Positions 18,805-35,181 of a DNA stretch of 64,000 nt are shown piece after piece; position 1 is the first letter of the stretch, and every line of letters begins with the position of its first letter. Made by a program: the position numbers and the translations under genes. The stretch is taken from positions 84,545-148,544 of the forward strand of contig NZ_JAENIJ010000002.1 in assembly GCF_016595435.1 (NCBI RefSeq), in the 5' to 3' direction. This stretch comes from Luteolibacter pohnpeiensis. Lineage in GTDB: Bacteria > Verrucomicrobiota > Verrucomicrobiia > Verrucomicrobiales > Akkermansiaceae. The notes beneath the pieces were generated by a model. The model ran no database searches. It saw only the letters and a program-made list of their open reading frames with translations, and was not told the origin of the DNA.

Positions 18805-21800
18805 TCACTCGCCGACCTTTAAACGGATGTCATCGGAGTTCGCCCGCAGCTCCGGCGCATACATGCCCTCCGCCATCGCGGGGAGTGCTTTGTAGGTGCC
18901 TGGGGCTTCGGCCCGCAGTTGGTAGCGAAGCGTGTGTTTTCCCCGTGGTAGCGAGCGGATGTAGAAATTCACGCTTTCGTTCCGCGGTTCCATGTAGGCG
19001 TTCAGGGTGCTGCCAGGAACGTATCCGCTGAGGGCTTCCAACGGCTCAAAACCGGCGGCTTTCGCATCGGAAAACAGCAAATATTCGTAGTCGTTTTTGC
19101 TCTCCAGGATCAATTCGACCTCAATACGGTCGCCCGATTTGACGGAATCGCCATCTTTCAGGACTTCGCGGCGGAACCGTTGCTCAAGCTGATGCGTCAC
19201 CAATCCGGTCGAATCCGGCGTTTCGGTTTCTTTTTCGAGCGGAATCAGCCTCGAAACGCGGCGCTGGACTTTCACCTCCAGGCCCGTGGCCTTGAGCTGA
19301 TCTTCCATGGTGAAAACCTGGAGATAGGCATTTGCATAGAGCGTGCCCTTGCCACTGCGGCGCAATTCGATCTGATGCTTCCCGCCAGGGACCTGCTCAC
19401 CGGAAAGAACGATGGTGCCATCGAAATCGAAAAGATTGTCGCGGTTGATTTCGACCGTTCTCAGCGAATTCCCATCGACCAGAACTTCCACCTTCATCTC
19501 AGGTGCGCCCTCGCCGCTGGCAGTGAAGTAATCCGCAATCGCCTCCACAGCAAACGCCGTATCGCGGGTCGATTTCCAGGCCGATCCCTGGCGGCGATTG
19601 TTCACCAGATACTTCGCCACTCCACGCGCCACGGAGTCCTTGGGTTTCACCGCGGCCAGCAATTTCAGATACCAGGCGTTTGCTTCCACTTCACTGCCAT
19701 ACCAATACCACCAGTAGGTTTGGTTGTTCAGATCAAGGTAGGCAGTCTGATTTTCAGCGTCCTGTTTTAGGAATTGGGAGACCACCTCAAGCATTTCATC
19801 ACGTCTCGCCACATCCCCCATGCGATTTTGCTCCAGCCCAAGCAAACACTGGGCGTAAACCGGCAAGTCCAGCCGGTCGCGATACAGAAATGCCGCCATC
19901 GGCTCGGAATTCCTCAATGCCTGCCCCAAAACGTATCGCACGAAAGCGTCAACGGCATCACAGCGCACTTTCTCGCGCAGATTCTTGTTCGGCACTTTTT
20001 TCCCGGCAGCTCTCAGCGCCTGATTCTCCACGTAACGCTGCAGCGCTTCCGCTTCGTGACGCTCGTAGGCGATCAGCCAGCCAATCGCGGGATCAAGCAT
20101 GGTCGATGGAATATCCACTCCAGCCTGATTCGCCGCCAACAAGCCATGAACGATCAGTGCCGTGGTGTGTGGGTAAGAATGCTCGCCGTAGCCGGAAAAC
20201 CAACCCCAGCCGCCATCGGCATTTTGCATCCCTGCCAGTCGGTCAAGCCCCGTGCTGATCATGCGATCCAGCTCCGCTTCATCAAACACTGGATTGCGTT
20301 GCCACTGCTGCCATTCCTTTTCCCGACCGGAACCCAGTTGCTGGGGATTCAAATTGATCCGTTTCGCACGGATTTCCGCCAGATTCACGCCCATTTCCGT
20401 CAGCATTTTGCGGGCGATCGCTGCTGGCACGAAACGATTCAACGTTTGCTCAGTGCAGCCGTGAGGATAGTCCGCCAGGTAAGGAATCGCATCCACCACC
20501 GCTCCGGCAACCGTCGGCGAAAAACGGATCGTCAGCTTCGATTCCTCCGGCCGACGCTTGTCCGGGACTTCGAAGTCGATGGCGGCCGATTCCTGATCCT
20601 CGGTGACCACGCGGCTCCACGCTTCCTGTTTCGAGATGCCATGGACCAGCACCGGAAGCTGGCGCTCCACCGCATCGCCATCGTCGTCTGCAGTCACTTT
20701 CATGCGCAGCGTCGCTTCACCGGCGTGGAGTGCTTTCACTTTCCAATCGACGCGTTTTTCCGACATCGCCGCCATTTCCACCGTTGGACTTTCTCCACTG
20801 ACCAGTTCCAGCGCTTCACCATCGAGTTCGAGAGAAACCGTCACCGATTTTGCTTCAGAGTGATCGTTGTGAACCACCGCACTCAGCACCGCTTCATCTC
20901 CTTCTACGAGAAACCGTGGCGCTTGCAGTCGGACCAGCAGTTCCTTCGACGTGATGATTTCCGCAGTGCCCTCGCCAACTTGTGTACCATCTGCCATCGC
21001 CCAGACCCGGGCCTTCCAGGTGGTCAAATTATCGGGGAATTCCAAGGGGATCTCGGCTTGGCCATTTTCGTCGGTTTCGATTTCACCAGACCATTTCAGC
21101 AAATCCGCAAAGTCCTTGCGGACGTGGATCTCAGGCGCAGCAGCCATTTCAGCTCCTTTAGCCATCGCACCACCTCTGGCCATCATCGGTGTGGCAGGGG
21201 ATGCAGCAAAAGGGTCAGCATCAGACTCTGCAAATTCATAACGTTGCCTACCGTAAAGGCTTCGCGACTGCGTCCGTATCCCGGCATCTGCGTAATAACC
21301 CAAATGCACCATTTCTTCTGAACCATCCCGGACCAAATTCCCGGAAGCGATCGGAATGGAGTCTGGAATCGAATAACCATAAAACTCGTTTTTCCAACCC
21401 CAGAAATTCTCATTGATCGGCCCGACGTTGGAGCCTCCGGCAATGGCTTCCAGTGCTTTATCGTAAATGGTCAGAGCGGCCTTCCCGCGAATCGGATTTC
21501 CCGCAGCATCCTTGAGCGTCAGCTTGATCGAGGAATGCGCCTGGGGTTGCACCCGGTTTGCAGCTGGCTCCAGAGAGACATCGATCAGCTTGCTAACAGG
21601 TGGTAGCAGCACCTCGCGCTCGGTCGAATGCACCTCCCCGTTGAACACGGTCACCGCTTCGATGAACATGTTGGGCATGTCGCGTGCGTCCAAGGGAACC
21701 GGCACTTCAAGGCTTTTGCCGTCCAGTTTCACCAGCTTCGCCTCGCGACCACTGTTTCCCGCCATGTGAATGAAAAGCCAGACGCTTGCATCCGCGTGAT

Positions 21801-24800
21801 CGCTATTCACCCGGAGTTTCAGGGTCTCTCCCGGCGCATAGGTTTGCTTATCGGTCAGCAACTCGATGTCACCGAACTTCCAATGCTCCGTGTCGGGAGC
21901 GCCGGAGCCATACACATTCAAAATCGCCCCGCCTTCCGTGACTTCACCGCCATCAAGCGAGAGCTTTGCGGAAAGCCGGTATTGTCCCGCAGCAGGTGCC
22001 TGGAATTTCTGCTCGATCTTGCCTTCGGCGTTCGTTTCCACCGGCCAGGAGGAAACTTCAGTTTCCTCGACTCGGCCATCGTCTCCGATATTCAGCTTGA
22101 GCAGGGCCAGGGTTCCCTTCGCACCAACCACCGGTTTCCCCGCCAAGGTAGCAGCGGAGATTTGCGCGACAACATCGTCACCTGGAGCGCTAAATCCACG
22201 CTCGGTCCAGACCACGACTTCGAATGGTTTTCGCGCTGCGATCACCTCCCCCGTGCCAGATTCCTCGCGTCTTGAAGCGTCCACCACTCGCGCCTCGATC
22301 ACGTATTTCGCGTCCATGTCGCCATGGGCCTGCAGCGCCGCTGCGGTATCCACCACCACTTCAACGGTACCATCTGGCCCGATTTCCGTGGTCTTTTGCA
22401 GCACCAACTCATCCGGCGTCCAACGGCCCCGATTTTGCCATGGCGGTGATGGTGGGAAGCAACGCCAGGAAGCCCAGGACGGGTGCCAGCTTGCGACCGC
22501 CTGAGGCCACCAGGCACCGGGTCCGTAAAGCCAATCCCATCTTGAAAGCGGGAACCAACGTTCGCCGAGCGATTTTCGTTTCACCGTGATCTCGACCCGC
22601 GCATTTCGCACCGGAGCACCATGGAAATAAGTCGCTTTGACCTTGGCGGTAAAAGTTTCGCCCAATTTCACCGGGGCATCTGGTGCCTCAACGGTCACCT
22701 CATACTCCGGCTTCCGATACTCCTCGACCCGGAAGGACATCGACGTCGAAATCTTGTCGACGATCTCGAATCTCGCACGCCATTCCCCCAGTGCCGCATC
22801 CCTGGGGATCACCGTCTCCGCCTCGACAGTTCCCATTGCATCGGTCTTCAGTTTTTCGAGTTTTACCGATTCGTCACCGCGTCCATTGTAAAGGGTTAGG
22901 GTCCCTTCCAAGTTGGCATATTTGCCATCCTCCGGATTGAAATAACCGACATTCCTTAGATAAAATTTCAAATGCACCGTATCCCCCGGCTGATAGAGCG
23001 GCCGGTCTGAAATCCCATAGCTGATGTCACGATTGCCATTCTCGAACCCAGACTCGCCGAGATAGTAGTTCAGGAAACCGGAATACGCCGACTTCCGCCC
23101 CTCGCTTTTCGCAACCGTCATCCATTGATAGTCACGGTCCCAATCGCCGCCATTTAGCAGCACCTTACCTTCCGCATCGGCAACGCGGGAAAATTCCTTC
23201 ACCAGGACATTCATTTTACGCCCCTGTGGCTCAGGCTTATTGACCGGCACGGTGCGAAAGCCGAAAAACTCAAATTCAGCCCCAGCGACAGGCTCGCCCG
23301 TTGCAGCATCGACGGCCCACCACTGTTTTTTACCATCCACATCCTTGTGCATCACGACCGTATCGACGATCCAGACCAAGGTGTTGAAAGGATGGCCATC
23401 GGCAGTTTCCGCAGTGATCCACCAAGCACCGGAATCCTCGACCGGAACTTCCAGCTCCACGTAAGTTTCCCGATGATCCGGAAGAGGCTTCAGGCTCTCA
23501 TCCCATGACTTCGCGACCTCGCCAATGTATTTGGACTCGTTATCATGAATCAATCGATTGGCCACGTTCGCGATGTTGATCATTTGATAATCGATCCCAT
23601 TGGGATTCGACTTCAGATAACTCACCGCATCTTTCAGAACGCTTTCCACATCCACCGGAGCAGCGGTCAACTTCAGCTCACGAGCATTCCGGAATACCAA
23701 AGGGAGCTTCACTTTGGAACCATGCGCCACGGATTCTGCACGATTGAACTGACCCCAGTCTCCGGTGATCTGCTCTAACAATTTCTTCCGCGAATCCTCC
23801 GGCCCCGGGCCATGTTTGGAAATGACCTGCTCCAGGCATTCTTCCGCCTTCTTCAATTGCAGGCGATCCAAGTAAACGGAAACCAGCGCGTCACCAGCAT
23901 CCCCGCCCAATCCCTTATCGTCCAAAATCGACCGATAGAGCGCGATAAAATGATAGTCCGCAGACAATTTGAAGCGCTTCACGCCATCCGATGTCTCCGC
24001 CAGGCATTCATCATCGGCGAGAGTCTCGACTTCCAGAATGCTTTTCGCCTGCTCCGGATCCTGCCAGCCCCATCGCTGATAAGAATTGAGACTTCTAATG
24101 CTGAATTCTTGCTGCAACTTCCGCGCCCGGATCATGATGACGCGCGCCTTGTTATTTTCATCCAGCTTCACCTGCTGATCCAATGCAAACCGCAATCTCT
24201 CGCCATCGTTCTTGGCTGCGTCCCAGCTTTCCGGAATCTGATAGAGGACCGGCTTGCCATCTTTCCACGGCGCCCCCTCAGTCCCTCCGTTCGGTCCGGG
24301 TTCACTCCATTCCGGTAGTGCATCCAGCGGCGTCAAGGTTTGCAACTTCCAGTCGTCCCGCTCCCCGATCAGTCCTTCGACATCTTGCCAAATATCGACC
24401 TTATCCTGAACCTCAACCGCCTTGGACTGTGCCAGCATCACCAACTGAAGGGAGCGAACGAAATCGCGGTAGTCGGTAAAAACGGTCTCCCCGGCATTTG
24501 CCACCGGATCCGCACCAGGCGCTGCCCGACGGATCGCATAGCCAGCGGAGGCATCTCGTTCAAACTCACCCGCGATGAGCCTGCCACGATGTGGAGCCCT
24601 CCAATATCCAGCAGCAGCCTCAGCCAGTAGCTTCGGGTTTTCCGCATGCGACGCTACGGCATTTTCTACCAAACCATCGAACTCGGCCCACTCGCGTAAA
24701 TTGCGCAATGCATCCACCGCATCACGCAGGTCCTCACCCGATTTGTCATCATTGATGGCCGAAAGTTGCTCACGATAAAGCGTTACCACATCGCGCCAAA

Positions 24801-24915
24801 GACCGCGTTTCATCAAGTCCTGACGCTGCTCACGCAACTCAGCCGAGGGCTGCGCCATTGCCAGGAAAGAACACCAATAGGTCAAAACACAAAGCCAAAC
24901 GGAAAATCTCATCAC
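18805..24915 (-). CDS. Alpha-2-macroglobulin family thioester-containing protein (2036 aa).
   Basis: Signal peptide. Thioester motif GCTEQ inside DYPHGCTEQTLNRF. The size is consistent with a large bacterial A2M. No pbpC partner is present in the window. Confidence 0.85.
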   Translation of the reverse strand: MMRFSVWLCVLTYWCSFLAMAQPSAELREQRQDLMKRGLWRDVVTLYREQLSAINDDKSGEDLRDAVDALRNLREWAEFDGLVENAVASHAENPKLLAEAAAGYWRAPHRGRLIAGEFERDASAGYAIRRAAPGADPVANAGETVFTDYRDFVRSLQLVMLAQSKAVEVQDKVDIWQDVEGLIGERDDWKLQTLTPLDALPEWSEPGPNGGTEGAPWKDGKPVLYQIPESWDAAKNDGERLRFALDQQVKLDENNKARVIMIRARKLQQEFSIRSLNSYQRWGWQDPEQAKSILEVETLADDECLAETSDGVKRFKLSADYHFIALYRSILDDKGLGGDAGDALVSVYLDRLQLKKAEECLEQVISKHGPGPEDSRKKLLEQITGDWGQFNRAESVAHGSKVKLPLVFRNARELKLTAAPVDVESVLKDAVSYLKSNPNGIDYQMINIANVANRLIHDNESKYIGEVAKSWDESLKPLPDHRETYVELEVPVEDSGAWWITAETADGHPFNTLVWIVDTVVMHKDVDGKKQWWAVDAATGEPVAGAEFEFFGFRTVPVNKPEPQGRKMNVLVKEFSRVADAEGKVLLNGGDWDRDYQWMTVAKSEGRKSAYSGFLNYYLGESGFENGNRDISYGISDRPLYQPGDTVHLKFYLRNVGYFNPEDGKYANLEGTLTLYNGRGDESVKLEKLKTDAMGTVEAETVIPRDAALGEWRARFEIVDKISTSMSFRVEEYRKPEYEVTVEAPDAPVKLGETFTAKVKATYFHGAPVRNARVEITVKRKSLGERWFPLSRWDWLYGPGAWWPQAVASWHPSWASWRCFPPSPPWQNRGRWTPDELVLQKTTEIGPDGTVEVVVDTAAALQAHGDMDAKYVIEARVVDASRREESGTGEVIAARKPFEVVVWTERGFSAPGDDVVAQISAATLAGKPVVGAKGTLALLKLNIGDDGRVEETEVSSWPVETNAEGKIEQKFQAPAAGQYRLSAKLSLDGGEVTEGGAILNVYGSGAPDTEHWKFGDIELLTDKQTYAPGETLKLRVNSDHADASVWLFIHMAGNSGREAKLVKLDGKSLEVPVPLDARDMPNMFIEAVTVFNGEVHSTEREVLLPPVSKLIDVSLEPAANRVQPQAHSSIKLTLKDAAGNPIRGKAALTIYDKALEAIAGGSNVGPINENFWGWKNEFYGYSIPDSIPIASGNLVRDGSEEMVHLGYYADAGIRTQSRSLYGRQRYEFAESDADPFAASPATPMMARGGAMAKGAEMAAAPEIHVRKDFADLLKWSGEIETDENGQAEIPLEFPDNLTTWKARVWAMADGTQVGEGTAEIITSKELLVRLQAPRFLVEGDEAVLSAVVHNDHSEAKSVTVSLELDGEALELVSGESPTVEMAAMSEKRVDWKVKALHAGEATLRMKVTADDDGDAVERQLPVLVHGISKQEAWSRVVTEDQESAAIDFEVPDKRRPEESKLTIRFSPTVAGAVVDAIPYLADYPHGCTEQTLNRFVPAAIARKMLTEMGVNLAEIRAKRINLNPQQLGSGREKEWQQWQRNPVFDEAELDRMISTGLDRLAGMQNADGGWGWFSGYGEHSYPHTTALIVHGLLAANQAGVDIPSTMLDPAIGWLIAYERHEAEALQRYVENQALRAAGKKVPNKNLREKVRCDAVDAFVRYVLGQALRNSEPMAAFLYRDRLDLPVYAQCLLGLEQNRMGDVARRDEMLEVVSQFLKQDAENQTAYLDLNNQTYWWYWYGSEVEANAWYLKLLAAVKPKDSVARGVAKYLVNNRRQGSAWKSTRDTAFAVEAIADYFTASGEGAPEMKVEVLVDGNSLRTVEINRDNLFDFDGTIVLSGEQVPGGKHQIELRRSGKGTLYANAYLQVFTMEDQLKATGLEVKVQRRVSRLIPLEKETETPDSTGLVTHQLEQRFRREVLKDGDSVKSGDRIEVELILESKNDYEYLLFSDAKAAGFEPLEALSGYVPGSTLNAYMEPRNESVNFYIRSLPRGKHTLRYQLRAEAPGTYKALPAMAEGMYAPELRANSDDIRLKVGE

Positions 24916-25282: not shown

Positions 25283-25675
25283 CTATTCATAAGGGAGATC
25301 TTTGGCCGAGATTCCGATGAAATCAGGATCAGGCATTTCTGGCAGCTTGTAGGCATCAATCTTTTCCAATCCTAGAACCAATGCCTTACAAACCCGATGC
25401 ATCCCATCCATCACTCTACCATCCGGATCAAGGATGATCGGAAAACTCAAATCTGCACCATTAATAAGTTTGGAGTGATTCGCGATACTTCGGCATGTTG
25501 GAGCATCGCCTTCTGAATCATACCAATACATCTCGTCAATTTCCAGAATGCTGGTGAGTTCAATTTCCGAGGGCGTTAAATCGATCGTTTTCTTGATTAG
25601 ATTGCGCACATCCCATGCCAGCAATCCCTGTTCAGATGGCCGGAAATGATATTGAGGTCGCATTCTTTCTAACAA
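25283..25675 (-). CDS. Small ParB/Srx-fold (ParBc-like) domain protein.
   Basis: PIILDPDGRVMDGMHRVCKALVLGLEKIDAY resembles the ParB N-terminal / sulfiredoxin box (DG-HR...A). 130 aa. Same strand as the giant ATPase and 128 bp downstream of it. Confidence 0.45.
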   Translation of the reverse strand: MLERMRPQYHFRPSEQGLLAWDVRNLIKKTIDLTPSEIELTSILEIDEMYWYDSEGDAPTCRSIANHSKLINGADLSFPIILDPDGRVMDGMHRVCKALVLGLEKIDAYKLPEMPDPDFIGISAKDLPYE

Positions 25676-25803: not shown

Positions 25804-28800
25804 CTATTCTTCACCAACGTTTTGCCGCACCTCGGGTTTGATGTCGATCGGAGGTTCATCATTTCCATCGAGGCTTTGGATAGGGCCGTTTTGTTCCTGA
25901 ACGGGCACCACCTTGATATCGACCTCCACTGGGACAGCTCGAAGGCCGGCGATGATGTCCCGCAATTGCTCCACAGTGGTCTCTGCAAGTGTTTGCGGTT
26001 TGATATAGTCCCGACCCGTTTCAGCAATGACAGTCCGGATGGAATCCAATCCGTCTTGAAAGGCTGAGAGTTGAGCGACGACGCGAGCCACCGGATCGTT
26101 CTCACCACTACCACCGAGCAGGCGGCGCTTCATGAATTCCTTTTTGATGTCCGTCCAACGGGCGATTTCCTTCTCATTGGCAATGCCTTCAAATTCCTTG
26201 AACTTGAGCAAGTTCGCCTCAGCCCCTTGAGTGAGTGTCTGCGATTCGTTTTGATAGTGATCCAGAATCAGTGACCGCACCTCCGCCAAAGTCATCAGTG
26301 GCAGGATCTTTTCAGCAATCCGATTCATGTTCCGATACGAACCTTGTAGCTTGAATGGCGGCTCTGTCCGATAGGCATCCTCTTGTGCCGCGCTGCGAAT
26401 GTATTCCTGGTTCACTTGCAGGATCGTGTCGCGGATCTCGAACAAATGGCGGGTGACTTTCACCATTTCCTCAATCTCTGCCGGTGCATAGTTCCCTTTG
26501 AAATCAATGCCTTCCTGAGAGCCAGTCGCGGCGATTTTCATCACCGTGTAGATGTCTTCCTGATGGCGGCTGGCTAGCTTCGCCATGACCTTGTTAGAAG
26601 TCAGGCTGTTCTCGATGTAACTCGCCTTAAATGCCTCAAGATGACCTCCAAGGATATCGCCGAGGTTATAGGTGTCCGCCCGGTTGGCGAGCATGTCCGG
26701 GATTTTGAACTTCGCGCCGCCTTCAGTATACGGGTTCCCGGCCATCACCACCGCGACCTTCTTACCACGGAGATCGTAGGTTCTGGCTTTGCCACGCCAC
26801 ACCCCTTCCATCTTGCGTTGGCCATCGCAAAGGCTGATGAAGCGTTGCAAAAATTCGGGGTTGGTGTGTTGGATGTCATCCACGTAAATCATCACGTTAT
26901 CCCCCATCTCAAGCGCGAGATTGAGCTTATCCACTTCCTCACGCGCCGAAAGGTTCGGTGCTTCGGTCGGGTCCAGGGAAACCACGCCATGCCCAAGCGC
27001 CGGGCCATTGATTTTCATGAAAGTGAGGCCAAGACGATTCGCCACATATTCCATGATCGTCGTTTTCCCGTAACCCGGTGGCGAGACAAGAAGCAACAAG
27101 CCTGAACGGTCGGTGCGTGTATCCACACCGGCGGTGCCGATCTGCTTGGCAAGGTTGTCTCCGATCAGAGGAAGATAGACTTCATTGATCAGCTGATTGC
27201 GCACAAACGAACTCATCACTCGTGGCTTGAATTCATCAAGCTTCAGCGACTCGCGTTTCTCCTCCGTCAACTGTTGCTTCAACCCGGCGCAAGCTTCGAA
27301 AGCAGGAAGATCATGTCGCTCGAACTTCATCAGCCGATCTCGAAACGCATGGTAATCGGTTTCATAAACTCCGCCATCACCAATCATCGGGTGCTGGCCG
27401 CGCAATCCCGAGACATGGATTTTCGAAACCACCTCAATCACTCCAAGCTGCTGGATGCCGCCACGCAACCAGTGAGCCGCAGCTTCCGCTACCCAGGAAA
27501 GTGGTGAGGTTCCATGCTGTGTTTCTTGAATGGCAGCCGATTTCAATTGCCCAGCCATCCAATCAAAAATCACCAGAAAGCGCCTTTCCGCATCCTTCTC
27601 AAATGCGGTCAGCACCTTGTTCATTTCAGCGACGGCACCTCTCTGATCCATTGCCAATTTGAACTCAGCGGTCGTTGCGGCTGCTTCAGCCGAAGCAGCG
27701 AAAGCTCCGCCCTCTGCCAGCTGTTCGAACAGATAACCGGCCGCCTCAGCTGCGAAAGAAACAGGCTCTGCGTGCTCACCGATACCCGCAATTTGCGAAG
27801 CCGCAGCTGAATCGGTTAGGAATGCCGAAAGCTGCCGCTGCAGCGCGGCCTGCATCGGGTGATTCGGAGTTGGAGCGGTGCCAAACGCGCGCCGCATCGC
27901 TCCGTGTGAGGCGATCATCGGCGCCAAGCGCGAACCTTCCTGCGTGTCCTTGAACACTTCCCAGAACAACATCGCCAACGTGCGAACGCGCGGGCCGAAT
28001 TTCAGCAAACCCAATGCATCATGGATCGGGCGGATCGCTGTGAGCAATTTCACCGCATCTTCGTCATGAACGCCCTTGGTATAACCTTCGGCATATCTAG
28101 CAGACATGAAGGCGTGCACCGCCTCCAGATCATTGCCTTGGTTTCCATCCTGCAGCATCCGATGAATCAACCATTCGACCCGATACACCTGGCGATTTTC
28201 ACTAATCAGTTGCTGATCCCAAACCTCGCGCGTGGCAAGAAACCGCTCATCGGTTACAGGCTCAAAAAATCCAGTTCCTGATAGATGATAGGCCATGCCT
28301 TCCTCATGTGGCACAATCGAAAGCGCAAGCTCCTGAGTATTGACCGAGAACCGATGCTTGCCGAATTGCAAAACATCTTTGCCGCCTGCGAACAACTCCT
28401 TGCGATCGCGCAGTTGTCGGATTGCATCGCTTTGCAAGGTCTTCAGCCGTGTCTGAAGATCATCCGATTTGACCGTATCACCCAAATCGCGAAGTTCAGA
28501 AATGATGTCGCGCAGCTTGGAAACCATCAGGTCACCCGCAAAGTAACCATTGATCGCGTCCAAATCCTCCTGCGAATCGGCGCGATTTTTGACACCGCTG
28601 AGAATTCGCTCAGCGGATTTCATCAGGTTACCCGCACGCCGACCGCGTTGTTCTAACAGCGACTGCTTCCGTCCCTCGAACGCTTCATAGACTTCTTCAC
28701 GCTTGCGTGAAAGTTGGTCGACATACTCATCGAAGTCAGCGAACCGACCTTCGAGTTCCTCGACCTGGACCATCACCTTGGTCAGGTATTCATCACACTT

Positions 28801-30921
28801 TTCGGGAGTATCGCAAAGGTCGATGAAATTCACCACGGCTTGACCGAGCAGCTTCATCTGCGCGCCGAATTGAGCGACGCCTTCACTTTGCGCCAATTCG
28901 CGACGCTTGGATTTCAGCTCAGCACGAATGCCATTGAGAGTTGCATACAGCGCCGAGATATTTTCGATGATCGCGGTCGTCTGTGTCGGATCTTCGATCC
29001 GCAGATTGCCAACAATATCGATCAACAATTCCAGTTCGCTGCCCGCTTGATCGAGCGCCTTCGCCACCTCATCCGCCTCGGTGGTTTTGGTGATTTGTTT
29101 GAGTATCGCGTGCTGTTCCTCAATCGCCTTCCGATAAGGATCGAGCGCCTCGTCACGCATCAGGAAATCCGCAGTCTGCTTGGAAACCTCATCAGTTGCC
29201 TTGGTGACCTGCTGGTCCAATGACTCAACAAACTGAAGGTCCACATAGCGCAGTTCACGCAGACCGATGATTTCACCGCGCCGCATCCGCAGATCGGCCA
29301 GGTTTCTAACAAAGCCTCGAATATCATCCGGAGATGTGATGCGGACCGCTTTGAGCAGTTTTTCGGTGATCGCACGGACTTCATTCGAACGAGCAGCCGT
29401 CGCCTGGCGGAGACGTTGCACTTTATCAAACTCCTCGATCGCCGAGTTGGCAGCGGCGTTGATTTCCTGAAGTGGTTCGGCGAGATTTTTTGTCTCCTCC
29501 TGATTCAACCAAAAGTAAGTATCAAGAACCTCGCGGCTGCGTTTGACCAGATCGAGATAAACATTCGCGTAGGTATCCCCTTTTCCAAACAGGATCAGGA
29601 TTTCCCGTGCTTCCGCCATCCCATGAACGAGGTTGGCATTGCCGACCTTGAACAAGAGAGACTCGCGTTTTTCCTCTGGCACCGCAACCGCGGAATCTCC
29701 GGCATACGGCGTTTGCCAAAGTTGCAAGGCATGATGTTTCTGTGGCTGATCCGGTGCTTTGAACTGCACCATTCTGCCATCGGCCGCGATCGCGAAACCA
29801 TTGCAAACCATCGGCGTTTCCACCTGCTGGGCGATGACGTTGTAGGACAACAAAACGTAATGACCGCTGGCTTGTTGATAGAAAACAAACAGGGTGTCTT
29901 CGCCATTCCCGGCCAGCAATCGGCGCTCGAAACGCAATTTACTCAGGCCGGTTTCGAATGTTTTCACCTCACCTGTCGCCAGGATATATCCATTGGCAAA
30001 CAGAAGCCCTTGGTCTTCTGGCAGTAGAACGCAGGATTCACCGATCCCATCGAGTCGATGGACGGCCTTGGTCTTCTCATTGAAAACCAGATAGCGGTGC
30101 AGCTCCTCACGGTACGGCAAAACCCGTAGCACGATGAGCGATCCGATGATCGCATAGTGAATCTCGGCATCATCCAGAGTTTGATCCGAATCCGTGACCG
30201 GCTCCGCGTAAATCCCCTCGCCGGTCTTGGTGTTATCCTCGATTTTAACCGTCAGGTCACCGCCTACCGTTTCAACGAACACCCGATCTTCAATGGAAAT
30301 GTGCGGATGCTCGCCAGAGCGATGCATATCGCGGTGTGCACGGGTCCATTGGAATTCAGTGGTCTCAGGAAACCGGCATTCATGATCCGAGCGATTGCCC
30401 TGATACTCCATGCTCCCATCACCATTCAGAAGCCACTTGAAGGTTTTGAAATCATTCTCGGTTTTCCCAATCCGCATTTTCATATGCAGGTGGGGCCCGA
30501 TCACCATGAATTTGATGAAAACCGCCTCGCGATAGTAGCGAAACAGCGTGTTGAAATCTTCAACAAACCCTTTATCGGTTAGCACCTCGCCAAGAGGGAC
30601 CGGATGAAAAGTGCCTTCGGGCTCCAACCGGTAGAGTGCGAAAACATCCTCCAACTCCATGGTCTGCTTAAGACCGAACTGGATATTGAATCCTAACAGA
30701 TAGAGATCATTTCCCAAACCGATGATATCTCGCGGAACACAGTTATGGCTGGTCGCGATGTGTCCGGTGGAAAGAAGGGCTGTCGGAATCGCGCCAAAGA
30801 CATCCTGCCGCGCGGCGTTCAACTGCTCGATCCGCTCACGCAGAACGGTCGCATGTTGATCAAGCCGGGCACGGATCACCTCATAGGCGCCGCCCTCAAG
30901 TTGTTGGGGTGCATCACTCAT
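25804..30921 (-). CDS. Giant 1705-aa multidomain protein with a MoxR/McrB/dynein-type AAA_5 ATPase module.
   Basis: Uninterrupted 5.1 kb ORF. The single AAA_5 module at about residues 1190-1330 has Walker A LLLLVSPPGYGKTT, Walker B/AAA_5 box VMIYVDDIQHTNPEFLQRFISL, a sensor-1-like VAVVMAGNPY and an Arg in IPDMLANRADTYNL. About 1150 aa N-terminal are coiled-coil or Ala-rich with no motif I recognise. There is no TM segment. Confidence 0.8.
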   Translation of the reverse strand: MSDAPQQLEGGAYEVIRARLDQHATVLRERIEQLNAARQDVFGAIPTALLSTGHIATSHNCVPRDIIGLGNDLYLLGFNIQFGLKQTMELEDVFALYRLEPEGTFHPVPLGEVLTDKGFVEDFNTLFRYYREAVFIKFMVIGPHLHMKMRIGKTENDFKTFKWLLNGDGSMEYQGNRSDHECRFPETTEFQWTRAHRDMHRSGEHPHISIEDRVFVETVGGDLTVKIEDNTKTGEGIYAEPVTDSDQTLDDAEIHYAIIGSLIVLRVLPYREELHRYLVFNEKTKAVHRLDGIGESCVLLPEDQGLLFANGYILATGEVKTFETGLSKLRFERRLLAGNGEDTLFVFYQQASGHYVLLSYNVIAQQVETPMVCNGFAIAADGRMVQFKAPDQPQKHHALQLWQTPYAGDSAVAVPEEKRESLLFKVGNANLVHGMAEAREILILFGKGDTYANVYLDLVKRSREVLDTYFWLNQEETKNLAEPLQEINAAANSAIEEFDKVQRLRQATAARSNEVRAITEKLLKAVRITSPDDIRGFVRNLADLRMRRGEIIGLRELRYVDLQFVESLDQQVTKATDEVSKQTADFLMRDEALDPYRKAIEEQHAILKQITKTTEADEVAKALDQAGSELELLIDIVGNLRIEDPTQTTAIIENISALYATLNGIRAELKSKRRELAQSEGVAQFGAQMKLLGQAVVNFIDLCDTPEKCDEYLTKVMVQVEELEGRFADFDEYVDQLSRKREEVYEAFEGRKQSLLEQRGRRAGNLMKSAERILSGVKNRADSQEDLDAINGYFAGDLMVSKLRDIISELRDLGDTVKSDDLQTRLKTLQSDAIRQLRDRKELFAGGKDVLQFGKHRFSVNTQELALSIVPHEEGMAYHLSGTGFFEPVTDERFLATREVWDQQLISENRQVYRVEWLIHRMLQDGNQGNDLEAVHAFMSARYAEGYTKGVHDEDAVKLLTAIRPIHDALGLLKFGPRVRTLAMLFWEVFKDTQEGSRLAPMIASHGAMRRAFGTAPTPNHPMQAALQRQLSAFLTDSAAASQIAGIGEHAEPVSFAAEAAGYLFEQLAEGGAFAASAEAAATTAEFKLAMDQRGAVAEMNKVLTAFEKDAERRFLVIFDWMAGQLKSAAIQETQHGTSPLSWVAEAAAHWLRGGIQQLGVIEVVSKIHVSGLRGQHPMIGDGGVYETDYHAFRDRLMKFERHDLPAFEACAGLKQQLTEEKRESLKLDEFKPRVMSSFVRNQLINEVYLPLIGDNLAKQIGTAGVDTRTDRSGLLLLVSPPGYGKTTIMEYVANRLGLTFMKINGPALGHGVVSLDPTEAPNLSAREEVDKLNLALEMGDNVMIYVDDIQHTNPEFLQRFISLCDGQRKMEGVWRGKARTYDLRGKKVAVVMAGNPYTEGGAKFKIPDMLANRADTYNLGDILGGHLEAFKASYIENSLTSNKVMAKLASRHQEDIYTVMKIAATGSQEGIDFKGNYAPAEIEEMVKVTRHLFEIRDTILQVNQEYIRSAAQEDAYRTEPPFKLQGSYRNMNRIAEKILPLMTLAEVRSLILDHYQNESQTLTQGAEANLLKFKEFEGIANEKEIARWTDIKKEFMKRRLLGGSGENDPVARVVAQLSAFQDGLDSIRTVIAETGRDYIKPQTLAETTVEQLRDIIAGLRAVPVEVDIKVVPVQEQNGPIQSLDGNDEPPIDIKPEVRQNVGEE

Positions 30922-30940
30922 CTCAAAAAAAGGTAAAGTT

Positions 30941-30967
30941 CCGGCAGGCTCTAACAGAACCTGCCGG
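30941..30967 (-). terminator. Intercistronic hairpin plus U-tract between the flotillin gene and the giant ATPase gene. Probably a partial terminator or attenuator.
   Basis: CCGGCAGG, 11-nt loop, CCTGCCGG. On the minus-strand RNA it is followed by AACUUUACCUUUUUUUUGAG and then the ATG at 30919-30921. Confidence 0.4.
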
Positions 30968-30979
30968 ATAGGGTAATCA

Positions 30980-33022
30980 TCACTTCAGGAACGAAGCGAC
31001 CTTCGCGTCAGCAAGGCCAAATCGCTCCGCGGTTCCAAGCAGACCGATCATTTTCTGGCGACTTTCACCGTTTGCATCTCCAATCAATTTTCCTAACAGA
31101 GCGGAAATGCTCAAGTTCTTCAGATCTTCAGTGGAAACACCGAAATCGGTGATCCAGGTGTTGATCTGGGATTTGAAGTATTCCGGATCGCCATTGAAGA
31201 AGGTGTCCTTCACGTCTCCGAGCACCTTGCTGTTGTCCACCGCGCGATCTACGACTTTTCCCGTAGTAATCGCCTTGGTGATACGGTCGAAGAACTCGGT
31301 TTCGCCGCCGACGATGTCGATCTTCGAATGCTTGAGGGCTTCTCCGATGACAACTGCCTGTTGCTCGGCAATCTGACGTTGGACGTCGATCTGAGCGAGT
31401 TCGATCGCCTTGTCTTTCTCGAGTTCCAGTTTGAACTCTTCGTGATCCTGACCGGCTTCTTCGAACAGCTTCATCGCATCGGCTTTCAGACGGATTGCTT
31501 CCGCATCGGCTTCGCCCTTGGCGCGCAGCACATCGGCTTCGCCCATGCCAATTGCGGCGGACTCCTTCGAAACAGCTTCGGCAAGCATCTTCTTCGCAAG
31601 AGATTGTTTCTCTGCAGAGCTTTGCTCGGCTTCGGCGATGATGATCATTTGCTCGGCATCCAGCTTTGCAGCCTGACGACGTGCCTCCGCAGATGTGGTG
31701 ATCGAGTACGCCTCTTCGTCAGCTCTGAATTGCGCTGCTTGTTTGTGAGCCTCGGCCTCTTTGGTTTGTTGGATCAGGTTTTCCTGAGCGGTTGCCTCCG
31801 CAGCCGTGACCAGCACCTTCTTCTCACGCTCCGCACCAGCGAAGGCTTCGGTGTCCTTGATTTTTTGTTGTTCTTCCACCACGGACTTTTCAACCACGAC
31901 ACGCTCGCGGATGACGTCCTGGATTTCCTTGCGTTGAATCTCGACGGCTTTTTCCGCTTCGATGCGTTTCAGCTCGGTCACGCGCTCACGTTCGATTTGT
32001 TCGACCATGCGCTCACGTTCGACGCGCTCAAGTTCGACCGCATCGGTGCGCTCTTTATTGCGCTGGGCAACCAACACCTGGCGTTGCTTGTTTTCTTCAG
32101 CGATAGCCAATTCTTCGTCTGCAGCGATGCGTGCAACCTCGGCTTTGCGGCGTTCTTCCTCGCGAACCTTGGCGGCTTCTGCTTCCTCACGGGATTGCAC
32201 CGATTCGACTTCGCGCTTCTGGCGTGCCTCGGTTTCTTTCAGCTGACGCTCAAGCTCCAGGATGGCTTCACGTGCTTCCACGTCCTGCTGTTTGATCACC
32301 TTTTCCTTATCGCGCTGAATTCGGTTCGAAAGCTTCGCTTGTTCAGCAGTGAGTTCGGTGATTTTCTTGATACCCTCGGAATCGAGAATGTTATCGGGAT
32401 CAAGCATTTCGATTGGCGTCTGCTCCAGAAAGTCGATCGCAGCATCTTCGAGGACATAGCCATTCAGATCGGTGCCGATCACACGCAGGATCGCGTCGCG
32501 GAACTTATCACGATCTTCGTAGAGCTGGATGAATTGGAAGCGCTTGCCGACGGTCTTGAGCGCTTCAGAGAATTTCGCATCGAATAGATTACGGATCTCT
32601 GCTTCACTGGATGCACGCTGGCAGCCGATCGACTCGGCGACTTTCAACACGTCTTCCTGGACGTTATTGATACGAACGAAGAACACGACTTTGATATCTG
32701 CCCGCATGTTGTCCTGACAGATCAGACCGTTTTTTCCTGTACGGTCGACTTCGATCTTTTTCACCGAAATGTCGATCTCTTCGATGCGGTGAATGATCGG
32801 CCACACAAAGCCACCGTTAAAAATCACTTTCGGTCCCTGTCCGGTCCGAACCAAGGCTTTGCCTTTCTCGACTTTCCGATAACAAGTTAGAATTAGATAA
32901 GCAAATCCAATGGTGATGATGACACCGATCACAATTAGAACAAGGCTCATCGAGCCCAGGAGATCACCCAACACCCCGGGAGGGAAATGGGAACTAATCA
33001 AGTGGATGGAGGATTCTTTCAT
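30980..33022 (-). CDS. Flotillin-family SPFH/band-7 protein (YqiK/FloT-like), 680 aa.
   Basis: N-terminal TM segment, an SPFH core (KALVRTGQG...IEEIDISVKKIEV), and a long flotillin-type C-terminal coiled coil rich in E, A, R, K and Q. Confidence 0.85.
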   Translation of the reverse strand: MKESSIHLISSHFPPGVLGDLLGSMSLVLIVIGVIITIGFAYLILTCYRKVEKGKALVRTGQGPKVIFNGGFVWPIIHRIEEIDISVKKIEVDRTGKNGLICQDNMRADIKVVFFVRINNVQEDVLKVAESIGCQRASSEAEIRNLFDAKFSEALKTVGKRFQFIQLYEDRDKFRDAILRVIGTDLNGYVLEDAAIDFLEQTPIEMLDPDNILDSEGIKKITELTAEQAKLSNRIQRDKEKVIKQQDVEAREAILELERQLKETEARQKREVESVQSREEAEAAKVREEERRKAEVARIAADEELAIAEENKQRQVLVAQRNKERTDAVELERVERERMVEQIERERVTELKRIEAEKAVEIQRKEIQDVIRERVVVEKSVVEEQQKIKDTEAFAGAEREKKVLVTAAEATAQENLIQQTKEAEAHKQAAQFRADEEAYSITTSAEARRQAAKLDAEQMIIIAEAEQSSAEKQSLAKKMLAEAVSKESAAIGMGEADVLRAKGEADAEAIRLKADAMKLFEEAGQDHEEFKLELEKDKAIELAQIDVQRQIAEQQAVVIGEALKHSKIDIVGGETEFFDRITKAITTGKVVDRAVDNSKVLGDVKDTFFNGDPEYFKSQINTWITDFGVSTEDLKNLSISALLGKLIGDANGESRQKMIGLLGTAERFGLADAKVASFLK

Positions 33023-33060: not shown

Positions 33061-33747
33061 TTAGATTGAAGTAGTGGGAATGGGATGAACTAGATAAACT
33101 CCGGAGCTTTGATCGAGTGATACCACTACGATCTCAGTACCTCGGGGAATGGCGTCCGCGCCTTCTGTGAGTCTCGCATTCAGAATCGCTGGAGCACCCT
33201 GTTCACGAATGACTTCGACTTGACCGAATTTTGAATCGAGAATGATGGAACGGACCACGCCGGTTTGACCGATCACCGGCACCGCATCTTCCTGCTCCTT
33301 CAACTTTTTCATCAGTGGCACCAAAGGCTGCGTCACCAATTTGGTCACGATGGCACCCGTAATCAGAGCGCCCAATGCAAACCCAAGGGCAAGCAAATTG
33401 CTGTGACCTGGATTCAGATAATAATTCGTCAGAATGGAAATCGCCCACATGGCCGTGACCATCACGCTGATGACCACCGTGGTCGGAATAAGCCCCGCAT
33501 TTACGAATCGAAGCAATGCTCCTGCGACATCACCAATATTTCCGGCATCGCCGTCCACATCGACATCCATGTCCACGTCAACATCGGAGTCGGGCAGATC
33601 GAAATCTAACAGATCAACACCGACTGCGCCAAGCAATGATACAAGCCAGAAGACGACAACCACGCCTAGCGCGATTGTCAGCGGCAGATTGTATGGCAAC
33701 AACGCCTGCTCCCAAAGTTCTTTCACGGAGGAGACCTTAGGGAGCAC
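33061..33747 (-). CDS. NfeD/YqiJ-like membrane protein (the usual flotillin operon partner).
   Basis: Three TM helices, an acidic DVDVDMDVDVDGD linker, and a C-terminal OB-fold-like VVRSIILDSKFGQVEVIREQG...GTEIVVVSLD. Ends 38 bp upstream of the flotillin gene. Confidence 0.7.
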   Translation of the reverse strand: MLPKVSSVKELWEQALLPYNLPLTIALGVVVVFWLVSLLGAVGVDLLDFDLPDSDVDVDMDVDVDGDAGNIGDVAGALLRFVNAGLIPTTVVISVMVTAMWAISILTNYYLNPGHSNLLALGFALGALITGAIVTKLVTQPLVPLMKKLKEQEDAVPVIGQTGVVRSIILDSKFGQVEVIREQGAPAILNARLTEGADAIPRGTEIVVVSLDQSSGVYLVHPIPTTSI

Positions 33748-35043: not shown

Positions 35044-35154
35044 TTCATGAGCTTGGCTGTGTGACTCAAGAGATCCAGTCGGTTTTCATGGGAATTACAA
35101 ACTCGCACCCCGTAGAATCTACGAATTCCCTTGCTAAATGACCTGCGACTTGAT

Positions 35155-35168
35155 TTGTTCCACCGAAC
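35155..35168. promoter_or_regulatory. Candidate LexA operator (SOS box) TGTTCCACCGAACA.
   Basis: Perfect TGTTC-N4-GAACA palindrome 14 bp upstream of the lexA ATG. It lies in the 138-bp divergent intergenic region shared with the MFS gene. A third half-site, CTGTTCACC, follows directly. Confidence 0.6.
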
Positions 35169-35181
35169 ACTGTTCACCCTT

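Follow-up and report, generated by a model that had tools for sequence, protein, structure and literature searches.

The operon type considered here has been described in a comparative genomics study of the phage-shock system (mSystems 2024, PMC11237479), in which a "beta-propeller + coiled-coil + AAA+ ATPase" was placed in CesT/Tir-PspA-YqiJ/YuaF-Band-7/flotillin operons and a sub-membrane assembly and its dynamics were proposed. That study reached the cassette via PspA neighbourhoods, drew an ESCRT-like analogy, and stated that an "abbreviated operon" is widely distributed. YqiJ-YqiK in E. coli and YuaF-FloT in B. subtilis are NfeD-flotillin pairs of the SPFH2 group (PMC2636767), and the paper on S. 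oneidensis SO1376/SO1377 presents a YqiJ/YqiK pair that comes with a terminator and lacks an ATPase. A review (PMC13086221) treats the HflK/C-FtsH complex together with SPFH-NfeD cages. Neither Hinderhofer 2009 nor the P. aeruginosa SPFH paper mentions an ATPase, and our literature search returned no paper using DUF3686, PF12458, or "DNA repair ATPase" together with flotillin. Here, we report that a giant ATPase of Luteolibacter pohnpeiensis is encoded by the third gene of a cassette, preceded by a yqiJ-like (NfeD-type) gene and by a gene for a flotillin composed of TM, SPFH and coiled-coil parts. A preliminary description of the ATPase gene had framed the protein as an odd MoxR/McrB relative and thereby missed the cassette. 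The window, i.e., the whole stretch of 64,000 nucleotides that was analysed, shows a housekeeping neighbourhood around the cassette (Rho, PtsI, PFK, AcrB) and contains no PspA gene. The cassette is laid out as follows.

33061..33747, minus strand: gene for a YqiJ/YuaF-type (NfeD-like, "DUF1449") membrane protein, 228 aa (YqiJ_N, hydropathy)
30980..33022, minus strand: flotillin-like gene, 680 aa (Band_7, hydropathy, gene linkage)
32888-32944, minus strand: flotillin N-terminal TM, residues 27-45 (hydropathy)
32450-32875, minus strand: flotillin SPFH/Band_7 domain, residues 50-191 (PF01145)
30983-31342, minus strand: conserved flotillin C-terminal domain, residues 561-680 (block kept in 53 orthologues)
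30940..30968, minus strand: terminator-like hairpin, 13-bp stem with 8 G-C pairs, then a T-run (sequence)
25804..30921, minus strand: giant ATPase gene, 1705 aa, beta-propeller / coiled-coil / AAA+ (ORF, identity, homologues, Pfam)

In the YqiJ-like protein, 3-4 TM segments are accompanied by an acidic loop rich in D and V, and its C-terminal domain is soluble and rich in beta structure; its YqiJ_N match (PF21001, E=6e-4) is under the curated cut-off, and its gene groups with a Hymenobacter plasmid gene annotated DUF1449 by NCBI. The flotillin escapes Pfam detection when scanned full-length, and its residues 1-260 match Band_7 (PF01145) with E=1.9e-13; its middle is an E/A/K/R-rich coiled coil of about 330 aa. 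Positive charges follow the TM, and the SPFH domain is therefore predicted to lie inside the cell. These two upstream genes are the same pair, in the same order and topology, as YqiJ-YqiK and YuaF-FloT, which are accompanied by no ATPase gene; the YqiK/FloT flotillins share about 33% SPFH identity with the Luteolibacter flotillin, and tblastn found in them no match to its C-terminal domain. The flotillin stop codon and the ATG of the ATPase are separated by 58 nt, which hold the hairpin. Strong hairpins occupy the same site in many related loci, their sequence not being conserved, and we infer that the hairpin acts as an attenuator or a stoichiometry setter. The 130-aa ORF downstream of the ATPase (25283-25675) has no homologue in any related locus and is thus considered to be outside the cassette.

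Eighty related loci were fetched overall, 62 of them with enough upstream DNA for a linkage count. In 60 of these 62, the gene immediately before the ATPase, and on its strand, is a flotillin gene, and a yqiJ-like gene precedes the flotillin in 58 of the 60; two loci (L054 and L077) have an ATPase without an adjacent flotillin. Flotillin-ATPase loci span at least seven phyla, and the sources include Verrucomicrobiota, Planctomycetota, Bacteroidota, Calditrichia, Myxococcota and Kiritimatiellota. When all the flanking ORFs of the 80 loci were clustered, no further neighbour proved to be widely conserved; a PspA gene adjoins in just one of the 80. A plasmid collection gave the same picture: a flotillin SPFH match adjoins the ATPase in all 13 records that carry one, and the order yqiJ-like gene, flotillin, ATPase is kept in all three inspected maps (Hymenobacter, pQBR103, Proteus). 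The SPFH domains beside the ATPase in these 13 records are the closest ones (40-58% identity), and an ATPase is lacking from the remaining 299 records with a flotillin (<=35% identity). We found the flotillin C-terminal domain in 10 of the 13 ATPase-bearing records, adjoining the ATPase, and in no other record of the collection. The ATPase-linked flotillins are a distinct subfamily with a C-terminal domain of its own. The Hymenobacter plasmid holds an extended operon (Tir chaperone-PspA-DUF1449-flotillin-ATPase), and PspA also precedes the cassette in pQBR103 and on a Kiritimatiellota chromosome (PspA_IM30, E=2.7e-10). In complete genomes of E. coli, blastn with the Proteus AAA module found nothing, and 50,697 phage records gave no match.

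The ATPase ORF starts with ATG, fills 25804..30921 of the minus strand exactly, and is a genuine gene whose product matches the NCBI "DNA repair ATPase" of Luteolibacter pohnpeiensis at 100% identity. It is far above chance because more than 4666 homologues were found at E<=1e-10, the top 120 all being full-length. Members of the family occur in over 500 species-level genomes and, among metagenomic sequences, in thousands of clusters, with 58-76% identity within Verrucomicrobiota and a constant architecture; one homologue is labelled "phage shock protein A" by a source. Culturable carriers include Proteus mirabilis, Vibrio campbellii and Pseudomonas fluorescens pQBR103. The ATPase is a member of a widespread, already catalogued family (Pfam DUF3686/DUF7902, NCBI "DNA repair ATPase"), and the Luteolibacter gene is an ordinary member of it; the value lies in the family itself. 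The architecture, once called unusual for a MoxR/McrB relative, is that of this large family and appears in PMC11237479. The protein is soluble: its maximum 19-residue Kyte-Doolittle mean is 1.43, and no hydrophobic stretch reaches a TM threshold, in agreement with the membrane anchor having been reported as absent. Its parts are listed below.

29512..30843, minus strand: DUF3686, residues 27-470, with an N-terminal helix (11-42), a beta-propeller of about seven blades (48-403) and the first helices (PF12458)
28405..29676, minus strand: long-helix, coiled-coil-like arm, residues 416-839 (AlphaFold2 model)
28897-29151, minus strand: DUF7902, residues 591-675, inside the helical arm (PF25472, E=8e-27)
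27247..28374, minus strand: middle domain, residues 850-1225, opening with a small beta-meander (850-888) and continuing as an all-helical domain (model, alignment)
28054-28074, minus strand: GVHDEDA motif of the middle domain (invariant columns)
26182..27246, minus strand: AAA+ module with N-linker and lid, residues 1226-1580 (PF00004, PF07728, conservation; coordinates translation-checked)
27058-27084, minus strand: Walker A SPPGYGKTT, residues 1280-1288 (sequence)
26875-26895, minus strand: Walker B VMIYVDD, residues 1343-1349 (sequence)
25807..26181, minus strand: C-terminal tail, residues 1581-1705 (conservation, model)

The N-terminal ~1150 residues, previously taken as unassigned, contain two catalogued domains, DUF7902 and DUF3686, the latter matching with E=2.5e-177 and 590 bits over profile positions 2-448 of 448 (Pfam); the profile check for a known enzymatic N-terminus thus gave known domains, not enzymatic ones. 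In the AlphaFold2 model the DUF3686 region has about 28 strands arranged in blades of four, which corrects the view that everything outside the ATPase module is helical or coiled coil. Foldseek matches the propeller region to propellers of the WD40 type and of other types (DCAF1, clathrin terminal domain, Vps18, Elp1). A protocoatomer-like reading (clathrin, Vps18 and IFT-A matches) was considered and rejected: the TM-scores of 0.07-0.14 come from the propeller alone and are no evidence of homology. Long helices do exist as had been proposed, and they are found in the arm at residues 416-839, with lengths of 48, 58 and 52 residues (481-528, 645-702 and 731-782) and pLDDT mostly 76-90. The Ala-rich AASAEAAATTAEFKLAM, also pointed out before, corresponds to residues 1075-1091 within the variable part of the middle domain.

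The middle domain is modelled with pLDDT 85-95 for residues 950-1200. Residues 914-1152 are all-helical in the model, and there is therefore no second alpha/beta ATPase fold; Pfam likewise finds one P-loop and one AAA match region in the 1705 residues, so that the picture of a giant protein with a single AAA+ module stands. Residues G854, E908, G950, H952 and D955 are invariant in 63 sequences and again in 12 diverse members. No Pfam or PDB relative was found for residues ~840-1235, including a search of the middle-domain alignment against the PDB, and no Pfam family pointed to a hidden enzymatic domain either there or in residues 1400-1705, 12 diverse members included. With its invariant G-V-H-D-x-D motif, the middle domain (850-1225) could hold an unrecognised activity.

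The motifs of the AAA+ module had been recognised correctly (SPPGYGKTT, Walker B, the Asn and the Arg) and located incorrectly: the module was put at about residues 1190-1330, and the conserved block covers ~1226-1580 with its motifs at 1280-1530. In an alignment of 63 diverse family members (30-61% identity), Walker A and the Walker B DD are invariant, and so are sensor-1 N1396 (VVMAGNP), the Arg-finger candidate R1414 (MLANRAD) and the sensor-2 candidate R1530 (QGSYR). Of 72 long (>1500 aa) cluster representatives, 71 carry SPPGYGKT. Walker B is included in VMIYVDDIQHTNPEFLQRF (residues 1343-1361) and has the form hhhhDD, not DE, in all members aligned. Among the conserved blocks that the homologue alignment defined, the AAA+ module plus lid ranks highest (0.62-0.84, save a variable stretch at ~1451-1500). 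The loop after beta2, GHGVVSLDP, has no aromatic residue, i.e., the canonical aromatic pore loop is absent from the ATPase. The DD of Walker B makes a processive unfoldase less probable and fits a slower, switch-like ATPase. Conservation of the C-terminal tail is 0.36-0.45 up to residue 1625 and then 0.06-0.16, with a gap fraction of up to 0.76 and pLDDT <50 (AlphaFold); Pfam gives no match for residues ~1400-1705.

The module was originally called AAA_5-type, and PF07728 (AAA_5, best E=4e-9) does pass in 24 of 24 diverse members; PF00004 (best E=2e-9) passes in the same 24, and hence the AAA_5 label, judged by profile matches, is best regarded as ambiguous. For PF00004 the full-protein score is 31.4 bits (cut-off 21.2; profile positions 1-72 of 131), and for AAA_5 it is 22.9 bits (cut-off 22), rising to 26.4 bits on the isolated module; in the 24 members PF00004 does as well as AAA_5 or better. 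AAA_3 matches five of the 24, weakly. PDB sequence and profile searches with the full protein and with the full-family, AAA-module and middle-domain alignments gave matches in the P-loop region only (classical-clade proteins and RuvB), and no solved relative. The AAA+ part of a second AlphaFold model is of low confidence (pLDDT 59.7), and Foldseek on it returned the AAA+ fold as a mix of RFC, FtsH, Cdc48, NorQ, Vps4, Rubisco activase and RuvB; for these two reasons we assign no clade. Please note that a hairpin (1373-1380) precedes the sensor-1 strand in the model with pLDDT <50, and no helix-2 insert is visible there.

Classical AAA proteins are marked by a second region of homology with two arginines and by an aromatic pore loop 1. 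The ATPase has a single invariant Arg after sensor 1 (R1414, ANRAD). Neither a McrC partner nor the McrB-specific nucleotide motif was found, and the single P-loop and the all-helical residues 914-1152 leave no concatenated AAA modules of the dynein/midasin type, which bears out the earlier statement that the protein is neither dynein- nor midasin-like. The reported lack of vWA/MIDAS and McrC partners also holds: no vWA/MIDAS gene was seen in the window neighbourhood, among the conserved neighbours of the 80 loci or in the annotated plasmid loci, and no McrC gene in the window neighbourhood.

Most likely, the ATPase acts on the flotillin/NfeD membrane scaffold, not on DNA. Based on gene linkage and domain logic, we consider it a good probability that this is a flotillin-linked ATPase performing ATP-driven scaffold remodelling or client handling in envelope stress. 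Briefly, the flotillin and its NfeD partner would form an SPFH-type oligomeric scaffold at the cytoplasmic face of the inner membrane, and the ATPase would assemble as an AAA+ ring whose long N-terminal arms (propeller tip, helical stalk) dock on that scaffold, the flotillin C-terminal domain specific to the subfamily being a plausible site. ATP turnover would then remodel the scaffold (assembly, opening, disassembly) or handle proteins held there during envelope stress, and the intergenic hairpin would limit the ATPase to a sub-stoichiometric amount. PspA and a CesT/Tir-like chaperone extend the cassette elsewhere, tying it to the phage-shock (membrane-repair) network.

A more specific version, possible though rather doubtful, would have the ATPase dedicated to opening or disassembling the flotillin/NfeD cage at the expense of ATP, working through six propeller-tipped arms on the flotillin C-terminal domains. 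In solved SPFH domes the C-terminal domains converge at the apex; the AAA+ ring would pull the cage apart or gate it, and the middle domain with G-V-H-D-x-D might add a further activity. If true, this opener would be a bacterial counterpart of Vps4-ESCRT-III or NSF-SNARE recycling, and some SPFH scaffolds would be actively cycled machines, not passive membrane organisers. Knock-outs of bacterial flotillins mostly have weak phenotypes, and, whichever version holds, the family of very large ATPases locked genetically to one flotillin/NfeD subfamily offers an energy-consuming handle on the purpose of the scaffold.

A dedicated remodelling ATPase for PspA/ESCRT-III-like polymers, a Vps4 analogue that flotillin and NfeD merely recruit to the membrane, seems to us unlikely. 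The direct precedence of PspA in Hymenobacter, pQBR103 and a Kiritimatiellota genome speaks for it, as do the PspA route and ESCRT-like analogy of PMC11237479 and the one "phage shock protein A" label, and there is a real likeness to Vps4/ESCRT-III in that a cytoplasmic AAA+ protein is tied genetically to a membrane-shaping polymer and, in some genomes, to PspA; Vps4 is also among the Foldseek matches of the AAA+ module. However, the constant partner is flotillin (60/62), not PspA (1/80, and absent from the 64-kb window), and the ATPase differs from Vps4 in having no MIT or MIT-like domain, no aromatic pore loop, a Walker B DD and a far larger size; it has no PspA/Snf7 Pfam match either. A PspA gene may nevertheless lie elsewhere in the genome. 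We hold it very unlikely that the protein belongs to the MoxR/McrB type (AAA_5) as an aberrant member whose N-terminal extension is novel, acting in the manner of a MoxR chaperone or a McrBC-type nuclease without the usual partner. The AAA_5 profile does match from Walker A to sensor 1, as in RavA, NorQ, CbbQ and McrB, NorQ and CbbQ are among the fold matches (of the low-confidence model), and by our own reading of the sequence NPxxE..G...P..L.NR after sensor 1 resembles MoxR-type motifs. Compared with MoxR/McrB, however, the ATPase is 4-5 times larger, lacks the vWA/MIDAS or McrC partner, and scores at least as well with classical AAA as with AAA_5.

Two further readings are highly improbable. 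An anti-phage or conflict system, in which a large NTPase and membrane effectors trigger abortive infection, would suit a giant ATPase with membrane partners, and the patchy distribution across phyla, high cross-phylum identity and presence on some megaplasmids are compatible with horizontal spread. Against it, PADLOC-DB has no significant match, hitting the P-loop only at noise level (mad8 E=2.4e-3, IetA E=3.2e-3) and neither the flotillin nor the YqiJ-like protein; the phage records gave no match, the neighbourhood is housekeeping, and the very high conservation (58-76% within Verrucomicrobiota) with constant architecture shows no defence-type domain shuffling. The database name suggests a DNA repair ATPase, perhaps SOS-controlled, a reading that we regard as the most far-fetched. 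Besides the NCBI/Pfam wording ("DNA repair ATPase" / "ATPase involved in DNA repair"), it can draw on lexA, which lies 4 kb upstream in the window and has a perfect TGTTC-N4-GAACA palindrome, and on a LexA-family regulator that divergently adjoins the extended Hymenobacter operon. But a nucleoside permease gene intervenes, the adjacency is not kept in relatives, and a LexA/SOS link is unproven. Pfam finds no DNA-binding, nuclease, SMC/Rad50 or AAA_23-type domain; the AAA+ part is contiguous and C-terminal with Walker A and B 60 residues apart, not a coiled-coil-split ABC head, and the N-terminus is a propeller in place of the Walker A of SMC/Rad50/RecN. The conserved partners are membrane proteins, and the literature searched has no paper that uses DUF3686 or PF12458. 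The "DNA repair" name probably derives from coiled-coil similarity; as an annotation it is without support and probably misleading.

Among characterized machines, HflK/HflC-FtsH and prohibitin-m-AAA, in which an SPFH membrane scaffold is coupled to an AAA+ machine, are the best precedent for the flotillin-ATPase pair. FtsH is anchored in the membrane, a cage on the periplasmic side encloses it, and it has a protease domain; the Luteolibacter ATPase, unlike FtsH, is soluble, has no protease domain, and bears an arm of propeller and helices 1200 residues long, and its flotillin is predicted to have a cytoplasmic SPFH domain. The closest described counterpart is the operon type of PMC11237479, with which the Luteolibacter locus agrees in two respects: the domains of the ATPase run propeller, coiled coil, C-terminal AAA+, and the genes run YqiJ-like, flotillin, ATPase. 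The equivalence with the Dokdonia example of that study is drawn via the Hymenobacter locus, not from a direct Dokdonia alignment; across 95% of its length, the Luteolibacter ATPase is 47% identical to that of the full Hymenobacter operon. In contrast to the full operons, the Luteolibacter locus has no adjacent PspA and CesT/Tir genes, and its three-gene cassette is the counterpart of the "abbreviated operon".

The ATPase gene starts with an ATG at 30921 and ends at 25804 on the minus strand (ORF call and translation), exactly the 25804-30921 interval proposed in the preliminary description, and its 1705-aa product is 100% identical to the NCBI entry 'DNA repair ATPase [Luteolibacter pohnpeiensis]' (Verrucomicrobiota). 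More than 4666 homologues were found at E<=1e-10, the best 120 of which are each full-length (1633-1714 aa; 58-76% identity). With residues 1-1200 as the query, an exhaustive search of 1.84 billion cluster representatives gave 426 clusters at E<=1e-30, whose full-length proteins are 1590-1930 aa long, and 71 of the 72 representatives that exceed 1500 aa have an identical SPPGYGKT P-loop at a comparable position. Gene and architecture are therefore real and conserved. All motifs quoted earlier are present in the protein, although further along the chain than had been stated: SPPGYGKTT at residues 1280-1288, VMIYVDDIQHTNPEFLQRF at 1343-1361, and the Ala-rich stretch AASAEAAATTAEFKLAM at 1075-1091. 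Taken as a whole, the earlier observation is confirmed in part and its interpretation supported in part; one correction concerns the N-terminus, which had been called unassigned and in which Pfam places DUF3686 and DUF7902.

Domains of the ATPase, from Pfam and an AlphaFold2 model of residues 1-1200 (mean pLDDT 79.6)
Residues 11-42, N-terminal helix (AlphaFold2)
Residues 27-470, DUF3686, 'ATPase involved in DNA repair' (Pfam, entire profile, E=2.5e-177)
Residues 48-403, about 28 beta-strands, i.e., seven blades of four (AlphaFold2)
Residues 416-839, long helices over about 420 residues, three of them of 48-58 residues (AlphaFold2)
Residues 591-675, DUF7902 (Pfam, E=8e-27)
Residues 850-888, small beta-meander (AlphaFold2)
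Residues 914-1152, all-helical domain (AlphaFold2)
Residues 1276-1401, weaker AAA-type matches (Pfam)

Foldseek against the PDB matched the N-terminal model to WD40-type and other beta-propellers (DCAF1, clathrin terminal domain plus linker, Vps18, Elp1), with low TM-scores and owing to the propeller. No segment reaches the transmembrane hydropathy threshold, so the protein indeed has no membrane anchor. For the middle domain (840-1235), neither Pfam nor the PDB offers a relative, also when 12 diverse members were scanned, and Pfam gives no match in residues ~1400-1705. An alignment of 63 full-length, diverse family members (30-61% identity) shows conservation to be highest in the AAA+ module and lid (1226-1575), intermediate in the propeller, and low in residues 1000-1225, including the Ala-rich stretch, and in the C-terminal tail. 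Among the residues invariant in all 63 are the whole P-loop, the Walker B D1348-D1349-x-Q-H (always DD, never DE), sensor 1 N1396-P1397, the arginine-finger candidate R1414, and the sensor-2 candidate Q-G-S-Y-R (1526-1530), as well as, outside the ATPase module, G854, E908, and G950/H952/D955 of a GVHDEDA motif. The middle domain with its invariant His and Asp may conceal a further activity.

We read the module as AAA+, with a slight lean to the AAA_5 group. The window protein scores 31.4 bits with PF00004 (classical AAA) and 22.9 bits with PF07728 (AAA_5; cut-off 22), and each profile matches 24 of 24 diverse isolated modules (best E 2e-9 and 4e-9, respectively), the AAA_5 alignment extending further, up to sensor 1. 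The earlier 'AAA_5-type' label thus agrees with PF07728, but PF00004 matches too, so the label is neither confirmed nor excluded. PDB sequence and profile matches are confined to the P-loop region (Rix7, NVL, p97/Cdc48, RuvB, midasin), with no sequence match past it. AlphaFold modeled residues 1150-1705 poorly (pLDDT 59.7), and on this low-confidence model Foldseek returned an AAA+ fold with mixed relatives, i.e., RFC/Ctf18, FtsH, Cdc48, NorQ, Vps4, Rubisco activase, and RuvB.

Two genes for membrane proteins, overlooked in the preliminary description, lie directly upstream of the ATPase gene.

The part of the cassette upstream of the ATPase gene
30940-30968, minus strand, strong terminator-like hairpin followed by a T-run, in the 58-nt gap between flotillin stop and ATPase start
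30980-33022, minus strand, flotillin gene (680 aa), immediately upstream of the ATPase gene
33061-33747, minus strand, YqiJ/YuaF-type NfeD-like membrane protein gene (228 aa), upstream of the flotillin gene

The flotillin has one N-terminal TM, an SPFH/Band_7 domain, an E/A/K/R-rich coiled coil of ~330 residues, and a conserved C-terminal domain; positive residues follow the TM, and the SPFH domain and C-terminus are therefore predicted to lie in the cytoplasm. Band_7 was matched (E=1.9e-13) only when the first 260 residues were scanned alone; a Pfam scan of the full-length protein gave no match whatsoever, even at E<=10. We suspect that the biased coiled coil masks the match, which could account for the 'hypothetical protein' labels on orthologues, e.g., in Hymenobacter.

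A scan of GTDB (one genome per species) found ATPase relatives in at least 508 loci, the best 80 of which were compared; these belong to Verrucomicrobiota, Planctomycetota, Bacteroidota, Desulfobacteraceae, Calditrichia, Myxococcota, and Kiritimatiellota. Among loci with 2.8 kb or more of upstream sequence, the flotillin gene is directly upstream on the same strand in 60 of 62 (the exceptions are loci L054 and L077), and the yqiJ-like gene is also there in 58 of 60 with enough DNA. Clustering of all flanking ORFs in the best 80 of at least 508 loci gave no other widely conserved neighbor. An independent plasmid collection shows the linkage still more sharply. The ATPase occurs there in 13 records: Hymenobacter, Nonomuraea, Deinococcus (two), Streptomyces (three), P. 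fluorescens pQBR103, Halomonas, Vibrio campbellii, Photobacterium, and Proteus mirabilis (two chromosomes filed as plasmids). The SPFH domain of the window flotillin matches 312 records of this collection; the 13 best matches (40-58% identity) are those same 13 records, with the ATPase adjoining in each, and the remainder (<=35% identity) are ordinary YqiK-type flotillins without the ATPase. A search with the last 141 residues of the flotillin detected this C-terminal part in 10 of the 13 and in no other record of the collection. By this identity gap and the distribution of the C-terminal domain, the ATPase-linked flotillins are a separate subfamily with a private C-terminal domain.

Stable hairpins occur at the same position, with no conservation of sequence, in many related loci (L024, L031, L038, L039, L041, L044, L047, L049, L056, L061, L064, L069, L073, L076, and L078), which suggests partial termination or transcript stabilization that sets the flotillin:ATPase ratio. 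In 16 relatives a gene of ~125 aa of the PD-(D/E)XK nuclease superfamily (Pfam PDDEXK_3, E=3.5e-39), which we take to be the 'GxxExxY' family, lies between the flotillin and ATPase genes (locus L003, 8485-8859, and about 15 other Verrucomicrobiota loci, e.g., L004, L005, L006, L008, L011, L013, L014, L020, L023, L025, L026, and L042); it resembles a selfish or mobile insertion and is absent from the window. Also absent from the window is a phage CII (CP76)-like HTH gene (~160 aa, Pfam E=9e-8) that eight Verrucomicrobiota/Kiritimatiellota loci carry just upstream of the yqiJ-like gene, divergent in most (L036, 6481-6960, minus; L028, L030, L032, L039, L044, and L075; L064, 6170-6685, plus), whose product may be a dedicated cassette regulator. 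A canonical lexA (LexA_DNA_bind plus Peptidase_S24; 35131-35793, plus strand) lies 4 kb upstream of the window ATPase gene, divergent from the permease gene preceding the cassette, and the start of lexA carries a perfect TGTTCCACCGAACA palindrome (35156-35169). A divergent LexA-family regulator also adjoins the extended Hymenobacter operon (locus L082, 1580-2365), and the Dokdonia example has a cHTH+protease gene in that position (PMC11237479). The lexA adjacency is not kept in close relatives of the window, and the putative regulatory link is thus unproven.

Elsewhere the window is ordinary chromosome, its GC content is even (0.51-0.59), and nothing in it points to a mobile island surrounding the cassette.

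Other genes in the window
1546-5211, minus strand, PATR-repeat (autotransporter-passenger-like) protein, 1221 aa
11913-13763, plus strand, Rho
16585-18399, minus strand, PTS enzyme I
18805-24915, minus strand, bacterial alpha-2-macroglobulin (2036 aa), downstream of the ATPase gene
25283-25675, minus strand, ORF of 130 aa, immediately downstream of the ATPase gene
35970-37265, plus strand, 431-aa ORF adjoining lexA
41515-42588, minus strand, phosphofructokinase
54835-59211, minus strand, AcrB/HlyD-type RND efflux pair

The alpha-2-macroglobulin has MG2, bait region, A2M, TED, and bMG10 domains and a hydrophobic N-terminus, and its gene is not kept beside the cassette in other loci. The 130-aa ORF has no Pfam, NCBIfam, or PADLOC match and a homologue in none of the best 80 of at least 508 related loci; by eye, its DGMHR motif recalls ParB/sulfiredoxin-type proteins. 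No Pfam family is above threshold in the 431-aa ORF, with weak zinc-ribbon-like matches at its N-terminus only.

This operon type is largely known already at the level of comparative genomics. [quoted passage not shown] The Hymenobacter plasmid locus reads LexA-family regulator (divergent), Tir chaperone, PspA, DUF1449, flotillin, 'DNA repair ATPase', the last 47% identical to the window protein; order and identity therefore tie the window gene to the published operon. A longer version with PspA/rhomboid/glutathionylspermidine-synthase is found on pQBR103, one Kiritimatiellota chromosome has PspA directly upstream of the cassette, and Proteus mirabilis has the minimal three-gene cassette, divergently adjoined by LemA-family and TPM-domain genes (locus L083, 2681-4461, minus strand); in PMC11237479, TPM domains appear as a further membrane module associated with PspA. 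Neither DUF3686 nor PF12458 is mentioned in the searched library, and our literature search found no experimental work on the ATPase family.

Our proposal starts from a protein that is soluble, whose AAA+ site is intact and strongly conserved, and whose long arm combines a propeller with helices; its gene almost always accompanies those of one particular flotillin/NfeD pair. On membranes, SPFH proteins assemble into large rings or domes, frequently together with NfeD partners, and HflK/C is an SPFH cage housing the AAA+ protease FtsH (PMC13086221). The ATPase may form an oligomeric ring whose propeller-tipped arms would contact the flotillin/NfeD scaffold, plausibly via the subfamily-specific flotillin C-terminal domain, and ATP would drive remodeling of the scaffold or the processing of proteins retained there, within the envelope-stress network to which PspA belongs; the intergenic hairpin would lower ATPase abundance below that of the scaffold. 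A processive unfoldase is disfavored because the aromatic pore loop is absent and Walker B is DD. A DD Walker B also occurs in switch-like AAA+ proteins, e.g., DnaA. Rival readings make the protein a Vps4-like remodeler of PspA or part of a MoxR/McrB-like system, or the cassette a defence system. A further rival, a true DNA-repair enzyme as the database name has it, finds no support: the protein has no DNA-related domain, and its partners are membrane proteins.

Set against known systems, the ATPase differs from dynein and midasin in having one AAA+ module only, as had been proposed, and is therefore not like either; it differs from MoxR/McrB systems in having no vWA or McrC partner, an absence that also held, so that behavior of a MoxR- or McrB-like system is not expected. 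Beyond the published description go the linkage counts (60/62 and 13/13), the flotillin subfamily with a C-terminal domain of its own, a Walker B that is invariably DD, the GVHDxDA motif, and the recurrent intergenic hairpin, all of which make experiments sharper. The window copy is an ordinary member, in abbreviated form, of an already described family; the interest lies in that family, a widespread and very conserved putative energy-consuming partner of bacterial flotillins that is present in culturable species.
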